Assembly: GCA_964620415.1 (NCBI GenBank)
Contig: CAZUHD010000003.1
Location: 1-43,436, forward strand
Direction of reading: 5' to 3'
DNA length: 43,436 nt
DNA from: an uncultured Clostridium sp.
GTDB taxonomy: Bacteria > Bacillota > Clostridia > TANB77 > CAG-508
Positions 19,257 to 29,737 of this stretch are shown here, in pieces (within the stretch, counting starts at the first letter, position 1; each line of letters starts with the position of its first letter). The position numbers were made by a program, and so were the translations under genes. The notes under the pieces are model-generated. The model did no database searches. It saw only the letters and a program-made list of their open reading frames with translations, and had not been told where the DNA came from.

Positions 19257-19453
19257 TGTGGACTTATAACAAAGTATTACAATATCCAATAAATATAAAA
19301 AATAAAGATGTTCGTTTGGCTAAATTTATAATTTCACAATATGGTGGACCAGATGGAGAACTTGGAGCATCACTTAGATATTTATCACAACGTTTTGGAA
19401 TGCCAGATCAAAATGCAAAAGCTATTTTAAATGATATAGGTACAGAAGAATAA
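19256..19453 (+). CDS. cotJC: cotJC segment 1 of 3 (codons 1-65, Mn-catalase-like spore coat protein), ended by a junction-created TAA
   Basis: TAATG overlap with cotJB. MWTYNKVLQYPINIKNKDVRLAKFIISQYGGPDGELGASLRYLSQRFGMPDQNAKAILNDIGTEE aligns to the CotJC N-terminus. The FAHLEM-type motif expected next is missing here and is found at 29737. Confidence 0.85.
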   Translation: MWTYNKVLQYPINIKNKDVRLAKFIISQYGGPDGELGASLRYLSQRFGMPDQNAKAILNDIGTEE

Positions 19454-19466
19454 GAACCATAATGAT
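19442..19466. repeat. attL of element 1: shared core ACAGAAGAAT (19442-19451) plus element half-site CCATAATGAT (19457-19466)
   Basis: The core is repeated identically at 29728-29737. The half-site is the inverted partner of ATCTTTATGG at 29717-29726. Confidence 0.7.
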
Positions 19467-19870
19467 GTCAATTTAAAATGACAATTAAAATGGGAGCTAC
19501 CCTAGTAGTAGATGAATTTGATGCTTCTATACATCCTATGACAATCATGAATATAATAAATATTTTTCATAATGACGAAATTAACATAAAAGGAGCACAA
19601 TTGATTTTTAATACTCATAATCCAATATTTTTAAATAATGCTTTATTGAGAAGAGATGAGATAAAATTTGTAGAAAATGAAGATAAAGGGAGTATTTTAT
19701 ATTCTTTATCTGATTGTGGTACAAATGGAAACAAAGGTGTTAGAAATACAGAAGATTATATGAAAAATTATTTTATCAATAAATATGGAGCAATAAGAGA
19801 CATTGATTTTTCAAATATTTTTAAAAATATAGAAGGAGAGGAAAAATATGTACTCAAAAAAAATATGTAA
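19466..19870 (+). pseudogene. C-terminal fragment of an AAA_15/21-type (AbiLi/RloA-like) ATPase
   Basis: LVVDEFDASIHPMTIMNIINIF...LIFNTHNPIFLN covers the Walker B/D-loop/H-loop end of ABC-like ATPases. The N-terminal ~2/3 is missing and the fragment starts right at the att half-site. Confidence 0.6.
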
Positions 19871-20009
19871 TAAATATTATTTATCGGTTGAAGGCGAAAC
19901 GGAGCAGTGGTATTTTGAAAGATTACAAGAGCTAATAAATAGCAAAGAAGAATTATTATGTAAGATAAAGTTTTCTTCTAAAATTAGTAAATCAATTTTT
20001 TTATTTTAA
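19848..20009 (+). pseudogene. N-terminal fragment (53 codons) of an RloB/AbiLii-like TOPRIM-type protein
   Basis: YYLSVEGETEQWYFERL matches the RloB-family N-terminal EGExTExxYF motif. The ORF ends after 53 codons, against ~200 expected. Confidence 0.45.
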
Positions 20010-20621
20010 TCGAAAAATGTCGAATTCTGTTGAACGATTTTTGTTGACAAATAGTAAAAAGACTATTAAAATTATATAGAAAGTTCTTTCAAAAATTAAT
20101 TCAAGATTTAATTCTTTATGATTTATAATAATTACAATAAAAATTAAAATCAATTGTAAAAAAATGAAGGAAAATGATAAAAAATAAACTATTAGATTTA
20201 AATGATCTCGTATTTCAAAAAATAGAAAAGTTTATTATCTATGGTATTAAAAAGGAAGATAAAAAATATAAAATTGGCTGCAGATCAGAACCTAATAGGA
20301 TATTTTAAATATAATAAAAAGGAGGTGACTGTAGTAGTACAGGTATAGTATTAATAATAAATTATAGACTGGATGAAACACAAATAATTAAAAGAACTAG
20401 AGTAACTAAAGAAGATATAAACTGTTTATATTAATAGTCTCAGAAATTTTTGAGGGCTTAAACATTTTAATTGCAGGCTATATTGTTTTGTAATGAAGTT
20501 ATATTAGTAATTAAGTATTAACATTAAAAAAACAAAAAAATAGATTCAAAACTAATTGACAATAAATACCTTTAATGGTAAAATAGAAGTGTTGAATAAA
20601 AATAAGGGAAAGGAGGATTTT

Positions 20622-26824: not shown

Positions 26825-28385
26825 TTGGAGGATTTTAATATAACACAAGAACAATATGCTATATATTTAAGAAAGTCTAGAGCTGATATAGAGCTTGAGC
26901 AAAAAGGAGAAGGTGAAACACTTGCAAGACATAAGAAAATATTAACTGATTTAGCTTTAAAAAATCAAATGAAAATAGGAAAAATTTATAAAGAAATAGT
27001 AAGCGGAGAAACAATAGAGGCAAGACCTGAAGTTCAAAAATTATTGTCTGATGTAAGAGAGGGGAAATGGAAAGGGGTATTGGTTGTTGAAGTTGAAAGA
27101 TTAGCACGTGGAGAAACAATGGATCAAGGAATAGTTGCAAAAGCTTTTAAGATTTCAAATACAAAAATAATAACACCATTTAAAATATATGATCCCAATA
27201 ATGAGTTTGATGAAGAATATTTTGAGTTTGGACTATTTATGTCTAGGAGAGAGTATAAAACTATAAACAGACGACTTAAGCAAGGAAGGGAATCATCTGC
27301 AAGAGAGGGAAAATATGTGGGAAGTATTGCTCCTTTTGGATATGATAAGGTAAAAATAAAAAATGATAAAGGTTATACATTAATAAAAAATAGGGAAGCT
27401 TTGACTGTAAAAATTATATATGATTTATATGCTTATAATAATTTATCTTTATATGAAATAGAAAAAAGAATAAATGAAATGAACTTAAAGCCTAGAATAA
27501 ATGATAAGTGGTCTATAACAAGCATAAAAGATATTTTATCAAATCCAGTCTATATTGGAAAAATAAAGTGGAATTGTAGAAAAGTAGTTAAAGTTTACAA
27601 AAATGAAAGATTACTTATTACTAGACCAAGAAATAACAATTATATACTAGTAGATGGGCTACATGAGCCAATAATAGATGAGAAAACATGGAATATTGTT
27701 CAAGAAAAAAGGGAAAAAAATAATGTGCCTGTAACACATACCCATGAGATTAAAAATCCATTATGTGGTATTATAATTTGTGGAAAATGTGGTAAAAAAA
27801 TGAAAAGAAAGCCTTGTTCCAATAATAATTCTATTATATATTGTGATAATCGCAATTGTGATAATATAAGCTCAAAATTAAGCATTGTAGAGGAGAAAGT
27901 GGTTACAGCTTTAAAGAAATGCTTTGAAAACTATAAGTTTGATTATAAAAATTATATAGAGAAAATTAATAATAATAAAATTAAAACATTAAATGAAACA
28001 ATAGAAGCTTTAAAAAAAGAGATGCAATTAGAAAAAAGCAAATTAATAAAAATATATGATTTTTTAGAAGATGGAATTTATTCGAGAGAAATGTTTTCTA
28101 AAAGATATAATGTAATTTCCACTAATATTGGAAAAATTAATAATTCGATTAGTGAATATAAAAAACAACTTGATTTTGAAATACGGAAGAATGACTACTG
28201 CTCTTCCAAATTTTAATAATATTATGGATGTTTATGATATTATTAAAACTCCAGAAGAAAAGAATATTTTATTAAAAACTGTTTTGTCAAAAGTTGTGTA
28301 TTTAAAAACAAAAAAAGCAATAAATAGAAAAGTTGATGCAACAAATTTTATGATTGAAATATATCCAAAAATAATATGTGATTAA
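26825..28385 (+). CDS. Large serine recombinase of element 1 (SpoIVCA-like). Full length (~519 aa) needs a +1 shift at zero-frame CGG 28184-28186
   Basis: TTG start after AGGAGG. Catalytic YLRKSRAD...VVEVERLARG resolvase domain, recombinase domain, Cys-rich zinc ribbon (CGKCGKKM...CDNRNC) and coiled coil. The 0 frame stops at 28216. Skipping C28184 continues G-RMTTALPNFNNIMDVYD..EEKNILLKTVLSKVVYLK..FMIEIYPK. Confidence 0.8.
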
Positions 28386-28748
28386 TTTAAAAAATATATA
28401 TGAAGGTCAAATAAAATGTACATATATTAAGAATTTAAATGCTAGTTACATAAATATATAAAAATAGAATAGGATTTACTAGGTACACTAGCTAGAAAAG
28501 ATGTGGATATATTTGCAGAGTTGGGAAGTAGAGTCAAATGATAAAATTTAATACATAAACTAATGATTTTCAGAATAAAAAATATCCTAAGTTTGACAGT
28601 TAAAATGAGCAATCTTATATGGAAGTAAGAATTGCTCGTTTTTAAGCTGTTGTCTAATTTAATCAAAAAAATTTTTTCAAAATTTATAATAATGTCATAA
28701 ATCTTTTAGAAAAAACTAGATTAAAAGCTTTTCCTAAATGTGTTATAA

Positions 28749-29558
28749 TTAATAATTTAAAAATTGTATTAAAGCTTGATTGAGTTCGTCTTTAACATCA
28801 TAAAAAGCACCATGCCCAGCATTTTCAAATGGAAATAGAACAGAAGAGCAAATATTATTATGCATAATTTCTGCCATAGGAAAAGAACATATTTTATCTT
28901 CTTTACCATGAAAAATCCCTGTTGGAACATTAATATATTTTAAAGAACCAAATATATCTTCATCTCTAAGTGCAATTAGAGAATTCATTTCTCCTATTCC
29001 AGATGCAGTATTGCTTAAATTTTGAAACCAATTTTTGAAAGCAATTGAAGGCTTTTTGTAAAAAAATATGTTCCCAAAATTTTCATTTAAAGCAGGCCTA
29101 TCATTATAACCTAGATTTATTAAATTATTAGTAGATTCTATCGTTTGACCATATGGATTATTTAGTGTTTTTGAATATGAAGGGACAGCAGAATCTAATA
29201 AGCATAATTTTCTAACGCCATATCCGTTATATAATTGCATATATTTAACAGCAATTGCACCTCCCATTGAAAAACCTAGCAAATCAAAGTTTGATAAATT
29301 TAAAGCATATATTACACAATATAGATCAGTTGCAAATTGACTATAATTATATCCATTACTTGTTTCATCAGAATTTCCAAATCCTCTTAAATCAATGCTT
29401 ATAATTCTATATCCACTTTTAATTAAATCAGGCACTTGGTATTCAAACATCTTATGAGATAAAGGCCAACCATGAATTAAAACTATTGTCTTATATCCAT
29501 TTGGATTTAATTCGTAAACTGCAATATTTGCATTATCAGTTGATGGAATAAAAAACAT
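28749..29558 (-). CDS. Alpha/beta-fold hydrolase
   Basis: Start chosen at MFFIPS (ATG 29558-29556) after GAAGGAG. Contains HGWPLS, nucleophile elbow GFSMGG, and C-terminal GHGAF. Confidence 0.75.
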   Translation of the reverse strand: MFFIPSTDNANIAVYELNPNGYKTIVLIHGWPLSHKMFEYQVPDLIKSGYRIISIDLRGFGNSDETSNGYNYSQFATDLYCVIYALNLSNFDLLGFSMGGAIAVKYMQLYNGYGVRKLCLLDSAVPSYSKTLNNPYGQTIESTNNLINLGYNDRPALNENFGNIFFYKKPSIAFKNWFQNLSNTASGIGEMNSLIALRDEDIFGSLKYINVPTGIFHGKEDKICSFPMAEIMHNNICSSVLFPFENAGHGAFYDVKDELNQALIQFLNY

Positions 29559-29716
29559 AAAATCTCCTTCTTTCATAAATTGTAATATATAATATGAAAA
29601 TTAATATAAATAGTGATTTTAAATACTAATATAATGAACAAAAGCTATGTTGCTATAACTTTTTTACTTGTTCTTTTAAATCATTAAAATTCTACAATCA
29701 GCAGGTTCATATTTAC

Positions 29717-29737
29717 ATCTTTATGGAACAGAAGAAT
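29717..29737. repeat. attR of element 1: half-site ATCTTTATGG (29717-29726) plus shared core ACAGAAGAAT (29728-29737)
   Basis: See attL at 19442-19466. There is a 9/10 inverted match between the half-sites. Confidence 0.7.

Follow-up and report, generated by a model that had tools for sequence, protein, structure and literature searches.

A decayed gene-intervening element in cotJC of an uncultured gut Clostridia bacterium and the cotJC-targeting family to which it belongs

So far, only a few cultured strains of Bacillus and Clostridium are known to have gene-intervening elements in sporulation genes. The skin elements, which intervene in sigK, rely on the recombinase SpoIVCA in B. subtilis and on CD1231 together with the recombination directionality factor (RDF) CD1234 in C. 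difficile (PMC5025042; bioRxiv 10.1101/2022.02.25.481979). CD1234 is an acidic protein of 72 amino acids (aa) with a pI of 5.5 and is sigmaE/SpoIIID-dependent (PMC5025042). The SPbeta prophage of B. subtilis resides in spsM and uses SprA and the 58-aa RDF SprB (PMC4191935, PMC5499854, PMC11722253), and the sprB promoter combines a sigmaE/K-type -10 element with a poor -35 element (PMC4191935). The gerE-intervening gin element of Bacillus cereus ATCC 10987 encodes the recombinase GirC and the 42-aa protein GirX and contains no phage genes (PMC5595907). In the accessible part of its published description, the yin element is a prophage-like insertion in yabG, a mother-cell sporulation or coat-maturation gene of Clostridium botulinum (PMC10747680). 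The cotJC-type operons of C. difficile are expressed in the mother cell under sigmaK control (PMC3789822), and a skin-like element in cotJC has received a one-line mention for Laceyella sacchari (Table S3, bioRxiv 10.1101/2022.02.25.481979); beyond that mention, we found no report of cotJC as an insertion target in the searchable literature. Here, we analysed a 43,436-nucleotide (nt) stretch of DNA from an uncultured gut Clostridia bacterium (GenBank assembly GCA_964620415.1, contig CAZUHD010000003.1, positions 1 to 43,436; hereafter the window), in which the spore-coat gene cotJC is interrupted by a 10,286-bp element, Element 1 (19452-29737), and further downstream by a second one, Element 2.

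We favour, with moderate confidence, the view that Element 1 is an eroded member of a family of elements that target cotJC, that the intact relatives are excised in the mother cell, and that this copy, which carries a frameshift in its recombinase gene, is stuck in the chromosome.

Insertion in cotJC and attachment sites

In the window, cotJC consists of three pieces separated by the two elements (all features lie on the forward strand unless stated otherwise). The first piece (19256-19451, codons 1-65) ends in ...NDIGTEE and matches positions 1-66 of the Pfam Mn_catalase profile and, in a tblastn search, residues 1-64 of B. subtilis CotJC. The second (29738-29895, codons 66-118) begins with LAHLEMVG... 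and covers profile positions 67-132, again with a tblastn match, and the third (33021-33269, codons 119-200 and the stop codon) was assigned by tblastn and from the joined three-piece open reading frame (ORF). As the left piece ends at profile position 66 and the right piece resumes at position 67, the junction of Element 1 is codon-exact. Removal in silico of 19452-29737 and 29896-33020 produces a CotJC ORF of 200 aa; over 98% of its length, it shares 92% identity with the intact 198-aa protein P0121. The contig encoding P0121 (GCA_947632585.1; L161 in our numbering of related loci) is syntenic with the window on both sides, with 82-86% DNA identity in the flanks, and has the gene order cotJA, cotJB, cotJC, holin-like gene, DUF421, ..., GT4 glycosyltransferase, YlbF, ..., M24 peptidase, EF-P. 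Its empty site, the attB AATGATATAGGAACAGAAGAATTAGCTCATTTAG, agrees with the excision performed in silico. The window genes cotJA (18493-18882; Pfam CotJA PF11007, E 1e-13) and cotJB (18879-19256; Pfam CotJB PF12652, E 6e-26) precede cotJC in the same order as in L161. Element 1 is therefore inserted site-specifically within the coding sequence of a mother-cell gene, and removal between short repeats restores that gene, as expected for a sporulation-gene-intervening element.

Both junctions of Element 1 have as their core the 10-bp direct repeat ACAGAAGAAT, located at 19442-19451 and 29728-29737. Joined to each other, the outer ends read ATCTTTATGG-aacagaagaataagaa-CCATAATGAT, an inverted repeat with 9/10 matching positions around a 16-bp centre whose midpoint falls inside the core. 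These coordinates and sequences are as given for the 10.3-kb element in a preliminary description made from the sequence of the window; the repeat is in fact longer and reaches 14/16 positions between ATTTACATCTTTATGG (29711-29726) and CCATAATGATGTCAAT (19457-19472), which are separated by a 16-bp spacer. The resulting attP is a palindrome of 48 bp with 14/16 arms, and its centre of symmetry is the GA at 19448-19449 / 29734-29735, within the core. By chance, a palindrome of at least 14/16 has P = 2.7e-6 analytically, and 2 million random joins of sequence from the window gave 4.5e-6; for a repeat of 10 nt at two fixed positions, P = 8e-6. By comparison with relatives and with the empty site, attL (19427-19472) is composed of a cotJC-derived arm, the core and the element-derived arm CCATAATGATGTCAAT, and attR (29711-29762) of the element arm ATTTACATCTTTATGG, the core and a cotJC-derived arm. 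We infer that the GA at 19448-19449 is the crossover dinucleotide in attL. The site is built as attachment sites of large serine recombinases are, that is, with an attP of about 40-50 bp, an imperfect dyad and a central dinucleotide in common with attB.

The cotJC-targeting family and the ancestry of Element 1

When the Element 1 recombinase was compared with one genome per species, 79 loci with 46-70% identity were found, nearly all of them in metagenome-assembled genomes of uncultured Clostridia from gut or rumen. In 63 of these loci, the neighbour of the recombinase gene is a cotJC fragment interrupted at residues 58-72. A search of IMG/VR with the same recombinase gave 80 loci with 47-52% identity on viral contigs of 20-60 kb, 11 of which keep a cotJC flank with the same break. 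The preliminary description had named the boundaries in related genomes as a test of its core, and in these 63/79 genome loci and 11/80 viral loci they coincide with it. The family consensus for attL is ...GGNACNGAAGAAT-nnGnnCC(A/T)TAAnGnTaTCAAT and for attR ...TTGATAaCnTTatGGnaCnnAnGAAyTNGCNCAY, and both Element 1 att arms fit them. Only the bases GAAT, which contain the central GA, are common to attL and attR in every related locus compared. In addition, several viral contigs carry an unrecombined attP directly after the integrase gene, for example CATTGATAACATCTTGGAACAGACGAATACGTACCGCTATGTTATCAATGA in L113 and CACTGACATCATCTTGGAACTGAAGAATCAGTTCCAAGATGCTATCAGTG in L086. The earlier proposal of a palindromic serine-recombinase attP with a central crossover is thus borne out by the GA centre, by the universally shared GAAT and by natural phage attPs of the same build. 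Judged from these alignments, the target of the family is a fixed site in cotJC, in the codons of the conserved GTEE-LAH motif, which is recognised by large serine recombinases of the SprA/SpoIVCA type with a predicted GA crossover. The core of the family probably comprises the palindromic attP of about 48 bp, an acidic ORF of 42-49 aa and the recombinase, everything else being exchangeable cargo.

The recombinase gene points toward the cotJC 3' piece in 54 loci, and 17 loci have the module in the opposite orientation, next to the 5' piece. Some phage attPs have the opposite centre polarity (...CAGTTCG...; L119, L124 and L153), matching the inverted configuration. Together, the ...TTCG... and ...CGAA... 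attPs appear to be a natural illustration of how the central dinucleotide sets the integration orientation of a near-palindromic attP. Inverted modules were seen in L006, L017, L025, L030, L037, L049, L050, L052, L063, L066, L077 and L080 and in the viral loci L085, L087, L088, L121 and L142.

The relatives fall along a range of sizes. Where the recombinase identity is 47-52%, the contigs are of phage size and have lysogeny modules, as in the viral contig L112, in which repressors and an ImmA-like protease adjoin the integrase. The closest relatives of Element 1, with 59-70% recombinase identity, are compact non-phage elements of 4-10 kb with swappable cargo; what they share is limited to att sites, small ORF and recombinase. 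Their cargo includes a histidine kinase, a response regulator, an HD-GYP protein and a solute-binding protein in L020, condensation, ATP-grasp and GH3 enzymes in L033, a DUF11 surface protein in L031 and a GGDEF-HD-GYP protein in L036. The larger ancestral versions suggested by the preliminary description can therefore be found in the form of temperate phages, but the nearest relatives are small elements without phage genes. Likewise, neither Pfam nor PHROG revealed phage structural, replication or lysis genes in Element 1, in agreement with the earlier statement on structural and replication genes; its PHROG matches are restricted to Ig domains. A decayed prophage was considered as the origin of Element 1 and rejected, because no residual phage genes are left and the closest relatives are compact non-phage elements. 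Rfam and tRNA scans of Element 1 gave no hits.

The split cotJC pieces of the family are rarely damaged. Stop codons occur in 1/34 complete 3' pieces and 2/27 complete 5' pieces, and the median pairwise dN/dS is 0.14 at a dS of about 0.6-1.3. One of the cotJC 5' pieces, at 7505-7520 of L007, reads GATATACGGAACTGAAGAAT and has 1 extra C by the junction, which throws the piece out of frame (...NDIRN*) and reflects either an error in the assembly or damage to the attB arm.

The best guide to the origin of Element 1 is L007, an intact 4.15-kb element at the same site, which consists of attL, genes for a 434-aa AAA_21 ATPase and a 220-aa RloB-family protein, a small ORF of 59 aa (probably 49 aa), the gene for a 534-aa recombinase, and attR about 120 bp past the recombinase stop codon. 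L006 contains the L007 module in inverted orientation and, in addition, an 801-aa Mrr/nSTAND3 gene. In PADLOC, the ATPase of these relatives is classed as AbiLi (E 5e-70) and the RloB-family protein as AbiLii. This comparison shows that Element 1 derives from a compact element of ~4 kb and that its immediate ancestor resembled L007, with its 4.15 kb and its AbiLi/AbiLii anti-phage pair. Of this pair, Element 1 retains remnants. The last ~130 of ~435 codons of the AbiLi-type AAA_21 ATPase gene are found at 19478-19870 (PADLOC AbiLi, E 4e-36; Pfam AAA_21 positions 260-304) and encode a product with 79-89% identity to the C-termini of 434-436-aa proteins in L005, L006, L007 and L019. The homology begins at most 5 nt from the outer end of the attL arm, in agreement with the earlier notion of a truncated AbiL-like ATPase starting at the att half-site, and ~1.1 kb of the 5' end are deleted. 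The RloB-like stub noted previously is the AbiLii/RloB-like 5' end at 19848-20009, with ~50 of ~220 codons; its homology stops at ~19997, and it gives a weak direct match to Pfam RloB (E 0.02). Its product is 62-91% identical to the N-termini of 220-221-aa RloB-family proteins, and 74-91% identical to those in L005-L007. A complete AbiL system with full-length AbiLi and AbiLii is present in L007 and L006 and absent from the window.

The rest of the RloB gene has been replaced by an acquired segment of 6.6 kb (19997-26636), which differs in its G+C content of 33-36% from the ~25% of the flanks and contains a surface-protein gene and a terminator. The surface-protein ORF has 1,982 codons (5.9 kb; 20556-26504) with a likely ATG start at 20622 after AAGGAGG, and is followed by its own terminator at 26511-26538. 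The predicted protein of 1,960-1,980 aa has a signal peptide and, according to Pfam, a Transglut_core domain, four Big_2 domains, a Big-like domain and a SpaA-like domain. Similarity to the family sets in again at the AATGTTCTTTTATTTTTT...CATACATAT region, 5' of the small ORF. The surface-protein gene is absent from all related loci. A phage origin of this 5.9-kb gene was dismissed, as its PHROG matches are confined to Ig-like domains. Near the C-terminus, six tandem 36-bp repeats (26088-26371) encode PG(G/E)DNPGNEPEN-type (PGxDNPGNEPEN) units, and the C-terminus itself has LPYTSD, a hydrophobic stretch and KKNKK, which resembles a variant sortase sorting signal.

A second gain of 1.25 kb is found between the recombinase gene and attR and holds a gene on the reverse strand for an alpha/beta hydrolase of 275 aa (28749-29576; Pfam Abhydrolase_1/6). 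No convincing flanking repeats were found that would explain the gain of either the surface-protein segment or the hydrolase segment. The sizes add up, as 4.15 - 1.1 - 0.5 + 6.6 + 1.25 gives ~10.3 kb. A homolog of the hydrolase with 72% identity lies outside the element in L015 (8271-9089), adjoining and convergent with the cotJC 3' end, and a C-terminal fragment with 84% identity lies inside the element of L002 (9235-9480), upstream of the small ORF. The preliminary description had listed the surface-protein gene, the small ORF with the recombinase, and the minus-strand hydrolase gene, all of which we recover. It had also placed GntR-like debris around 20173; the ORF in question (20174-20308) has no Pfam match, even at E<=10, and the assignment was rejected. 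Its remark that the recombinase sits about 1.3 kb from the right end is accurate, since the coding sequence ends 1.35 kb away, but the position is not unusual, as cargo 3' of the recombinase gene is also present in L006, L016, L018 and L019.

In this copy, a deletion thus took the 5' end of the ATPase gene up to the edge of the att arm, and the 6.6-kb segment replaced most of the RloB gene. Element 1 thereby illustrates how such elements decay, with cargo trimmed, new cargo gained and the recombinase lost thereafter. That the ATPase deletion stops precisely where the att arm begins on its outer side fits the idea, put forward earlier, of selection for an excisable site.

Recombinase gene, small open reading frame and excision

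The recombinase gene of Element 1 (26825-28216) has a TTG start codon after AGGAGG and is open for 463 codons in frame 0, which cover the catalytic domain, the recombinase domain, the zinc ribbon and the coiled coil (Pfam Resolvase PF00239, Recombinase PF07508 and Zn_ribbon_recom PF13408). The catalytic YLRKSRAD motif is present. The homologs have 512-555 aa, typically 534, and the L007 recombinase can be aligned end to end with the SPbeta integrase SprA (PDB 9dxh; E 5e-46, residues 13-525 against 12-527). The short ORF, which had been overlooked before, results from a frameshift. The lesion lies at 28186-28200, around codon 455 of ~534, in a linker of variable length after the coiled coil and outside any homopolymer run. 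There, the interval between the EYK and DVY motifs is 82 nt long in Element 1, whereas it is 78-90 nt, and always a multiple of 3, in 15 homologs. The missing C-terminus of ~65-70 codons (28190-28385; ...DVYDIIKTPEEKNILLKTVLSKVVYLKT...FMIEIYPKI) is encoded in the +1 frame, in an ORF that extends from 28128 to 28385, and matches recombinase C-termini in 68 loci by tblastn. The region is identical in L001, an independently assembled Logan contig from SRR14209493. Element 1 thus lacks an intact site-specific recombinase of its own, which relatives such as L007 and L006 possess.

The 463-aa product has no equivalent of SprA residues ~470-545. In the SPbeta integrase, a coiled coil is inserted in the domain DBD2 and the segment that follows folds back into DBD2; the region after the coiled coil, including F532, contacts the directionality factor SprB (PMC11722253). 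We infer that the 463-aa product is inactive, at least for regulated excision. Since the product is without the segment that completes DBD2 and contacts the directionality factor in the SPbeta integrase, Element 1 is most likely unable to excise itself. The lesion is probably recent, because the frame behind it is still open, neither the att arms nor the small ORF are damaged, and the cotJC pieces join in frame. Of the preliminary characterisation of Element 1 as a skin-like, eroded element retained for developmental excision, the likeness to skin, the eroded left arm and the non-phage cargo stand; retention for excision is doubtful in view of the frameshifted recombinase gene.

Directly upstream of the recombinase gene is an acidic 42-aa ORF (26688-26816), a candidate RDF gene, which is conserved in position and sequence in ~25 related loci. 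In the family, an acidic ORF of 42-49 aa always precedes the recombinase gene, and an AlphaFold2 model of the 42-aa product is a beta-hairpin and a helix with a pLDDT of 75. By analogy with the described systems, we regard these ORFs as putative RDF genes. Kinship with SprB or another solved RDF was tried and dropped, as neither the sequence nor, with Foldseek, the AlphaFold2 model gave a match. A derivation of the small ORF from the catalytic domain of a serine recombinase was likewise rejected: the weak profile similarity to residues 80-114 of gamma-delta resolvase (E 0.55) was set aside as chance, since hhalign gave a probability of 0.9% against the cognate recombinases.

The motif TCATACATAT (26662-26671; family consensus GCATACATAT) lies about 17-25 nt upstream of the small-ORF start, and we propose it as a possible -10 element for a mother-cell sigma factor. 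It is kept at the same position in 17/18 related loci, in which the surrounding sequence is variable. The motif contains CATACA, the core of the B. subtilis sigmaE -10 element. It also resembles the CATA-type -10 elements that sigmaE and sigmaK have in common in C. difficile (PMC3789822). Because a terminator lies upstream, the small ORF and the recombinase gene would need a promoter of their own; near the recombinase gene, matches to sigma-70 promoters were no more frequent than in shuffled sequence. Around the ribosome-binding site (RBS; 26650-26703), CATACATAT (26663-26671) and its complement ATATGTATG, which overlaps the start codon of the small ORF, form a 9-bp inverted repeat, the downstream arm of which is less conserved in the relatives than the upstream arm. 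A role of CATACATAT as an arm of an RBS-sequestering hairpin was judged weaker than that as a promoter: the RNAalifold energy was only -2.95 kcal/mol, the covariation term was positive and two pairs covaried, and in L019 the CATACATAT motif is present in the absence of the downstream arm.

From these observations, the following model can be drawn for the intact relatives. In the germ line, the element would remain in the chromosome. During sporulation, the mother cell would produce the recombinase and the small-ORF product, a putative directionality factor encoded behind the CATACATAT motif, and recombination between attL and attR would then excise a circle and restore cotJC, as in the skin, SPbeta and gin mechanism. 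Developmental excision of the intact relatives is suggested by the target operon being a mother-cell operon, by the small ORF, by the conserved promoter-like motif and by the fact that the split pieces are almost never degraded. Restoration of cotJC in the window would in addition require Element 2 to leave. Element 1 itself most likely no longer excises on its own, and cotJC would stay split.

Several points weigh against this reading. The predicted circle junction (attP ATTTACATCTTTATGGAACAGAAGAATAAGAACCATAATGATGTCAAT) and the rejoined attB of the strain (GATATAGGTACAGAAGAATTAGCCCATTTGGA) had no match in metagenome or viral contig collections. The small ORF has no match in Pfam, PHROG or PDB and no detectable similarity to known RDFs. 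The upstream motif does not match the sigmaE or sigmaK -10 consensus exactly, has no evident -35 element and, taken alone, is not a rare sequence in the window. A sequencing error common to two assemblies of the same reads could account for the frameshift, and the truncated protein might still be active, as might a C-terminal fragment made by reinitiation. Finally, low dN/dS values and intact pieces could also be due to recent, repeated insertions rather than to long-term reconstitution.

Among the alternatives, the one that fares best is that Element 1 is still a working developmental switch, which we consider unlikely, though to be taken seriously. The frameshift would then be a sequencing or assembly error or be bypassed, either by reinitiation at the ATG at 28190, giving a two-piece enzyme, or by ribosomal frameshifting, or a related recombinase encoded elsewhere in the genome would act in trans; Element 1 would be excised together with Element 2. 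In favour of this, the two att arms agree with the consensus of the family, there is no damage to the small ORF, its RBS or the conserved motif in front of it, the +1-frame C-terminal ORF runs for 85 codons without a stop in a genome of 25% G+C, the three cotJC pieces are intact and in frame when joined, and the left-end deletion halts exactly at the att arm. However, the lesion is outside a homopolymer run and identical in the independent Logan assembly, the shift site offers neither a slippery sequence nor a good RBS, and the lost segment is conserved in 68 loci and, in SprA, contributes structurally to DBD2 and to the RDF interface. As for help in trans, the only other recombinase in the window, that of Element 2, is 27% identical and its att arms are unrelated, which makes excision of Element 1 by this enzyme unlikely.

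Less probable still, in our view, is that cotJC merely serves as a conserved, dispensable landing site of ordinary elements and phages, which would excise for transfer or induction without programmed reconstitution of the gene. Mutants in cotJ of B. subtilis have mild phenotypes, which would suit a dispensable target, as would the phage-sized relatives with lysogeny modules at 47-52% recombinase identity and the piling up of elements in one gene, with two in the window and up to three breaks in L014. Damage also occurs, as seen from the frameshifted Element 1 recombinase, the 1-nt insertion in the L007 cotJC 5' piece and the stops in 3 fragments. On the other hand, the split pieces are almost always intact and under purifying selection (median dN/dS 0.14), and the small ORF and recombinase follow a conserved CATACATAT motif that resembles mother-cell -10 elements. 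Moreover, all experimentally studied elements of this type in mother-cell sporulation genes are reported to excise during sporulation (PMC4191935, PMC5595907, PMC5025042, PMC10747680). That there is no element at all, and that chance repeats and a chance palindrome or a chimeric assembly have misled us, has only the general caveat of a metagenome-type contig in its favour and is extremely improbable given chance probabilities of ~1e-5 to 1e-6, a codon-exact junction, a syntenic empty site, the same architecture in >70 independent loci and an independent assembly that is identical across the recombinase region.

Element 2, genomic context and comparison with known systems

Element 2 (29896-33020, 3,125 bp) is a second insertion in cotJC, independent of Element 1, which splits the gene after codon 118 (29895). 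It encodes an MNT nucleotidyltransferase (30022-30393) and its toxin-antitoxin partner HepT (30386-30835); the extreme right end is occupied by the gene for an intact serine recombinase of 541 aa (31349-32974). With CATAT as its core, Element 2 yields a perfect palindrome, gcaccatatggtgc, as the attP centre when its ends are rejoined. Its recombinase shares only 27% identity with the Element 1 enzyme, and the att arms of the two elements are unrelated.

Further breaks were seen in cotJC of related loci, around 102-104 in L008, L013, L017, L018, L021, L026, L029 and L031 and around 133-139 in L023, L032, L065 and L070. In L014 (11674-16284), cotJC is apparently cut at three positions. Recombinases within the insertions at ~103 are ~32% identical to the Element 2 enzyme. 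In L020 (348-1883) and L033 (2055-3497), a serine recombinase gene lies just upstream of the cotJC 5' piece, in the place where cotJA/cotJB would be expected; the two enzymes have ~35% identity to that of Element 2 and maybe belong to another element in the cotJ operon. We tentatively speculate that cotJC is a multi-site docking gene in uncultured gut Clostridia, with at least four conserved codon positions (~65, ~103, 118 and ~135), each used by a recombinase lineage of its own, and that several elements act in series as a multi-lock. If so, the 600-bp gene could be rebuilt only once all of its two or three independent mini-elements had left the chromosome of the mother cell, and the elements would be germ-line-stable carriers of swappable cargo, such as defence, toxin-antitoxin, surface-protein and signalling modules. 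A copy with a broken recombinase like Element 1 would then be a jammed lock, which keeps cotJC silent whatever the neighbouring element does.

The window has 25% G+C and looks chromosomal, with genes for a SleB-like cortex hydrolase, cotJA and cotJB and with housekeeping genes. The gene for the SleB-like spore cortex-lytic enzyme (13718-14422; PG_binding_1 and Hydrolase_2 domains), which fits a spore-forming host, and a tRNA-Gln(CTG) gene (14714-14788) are located upstream of the cotJ operon. Compared with L161, the window has two extra genes at 35552-38045, between DUF421 and the GT4 glycosyltransferase gene, coding for a wHTH/HATPase_c_4 protein and an AAA_14-DUF4143 ATPase; the matching position in L161 is occupied by a DUF4363 gene.

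Taken together, Element 1 is a decayed individual of the skin/SPbeta/gin kind and does not represent a new mechanism. The novelty lies in how large the cotJC-targeting clade is and how wide a range of hosts it has, in its reach from phages down to 4-kb cargo carriers, and in the presence of several stacked elements in a single gene. Among uncultured Clostridia of the gut and rumen, this strategy is common and is represented by a large and almost undescribed family, and phages share it with tiny non-phage cargo carriers; the target coat gene had been mentioned only once before in this context. The family also provides dozens of natural attP/attB/attL/attR sets for one SprA-like clade, including flips in the polarity of the central dinucleotide, and the 42-49-aa ORFs are candidates for a new family of directionality factors, which could be useful for serine-integrase engineering.

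Compared with the known systems, Laceyella sacchari has the same gene interrupted; it is a thermoactinomycete of the class Bacilli, whereas the elements described here occur in uncultured gut and rumen Clostridia and in phages, and the comparison is one of the interrupted gene. The yin element is found in a different gene and was compared through the accessible part of its published description. Like the skin elements, the cotJC elements have the recombinase gene near one end and vary in size and cargo with only the recombinase in common, and their excision would likewise restore a mother-cell gene. In contrast, the target of skin is a sigma factor, while cotJC encodes a coat protein on which no regulatory cascade hangs, two independent elements are present in cotJC of the window, and the closest relatives of Element 1 are not prophage remnants. 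With regard to SPbeta, SprA is a full-length homolog of the family recombinases, the sprB promoter parallels the CATACATAT motif, and some cotJC relatives are phage-sized; SPbeta differs as a 134-kb phage in another target from the 10-kb Element 1, which has no phage genes and a small ORF without detectable relationship to SprB. The gin element is likewise a non-phage element in a small mother-cell sporulation gene with a short core common to both junctions, and combines a large serine recombinase with a tiny factor lacking known motifs, both of which are needed for its excision; at 42 aa, GirX even has the length of the window ORF. It differs in that its target is gerE and not cotJC, that the cargo of the cotJC family is highly variable (defence, signalling and surface proteins), that the small ORF has no detected similarity to any known RDF, and that the Element 1 recombinase gene is frameshifted. 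The closest analogue of Element 1 in organisation is therefore gin, and the closest enzyme is SprA.

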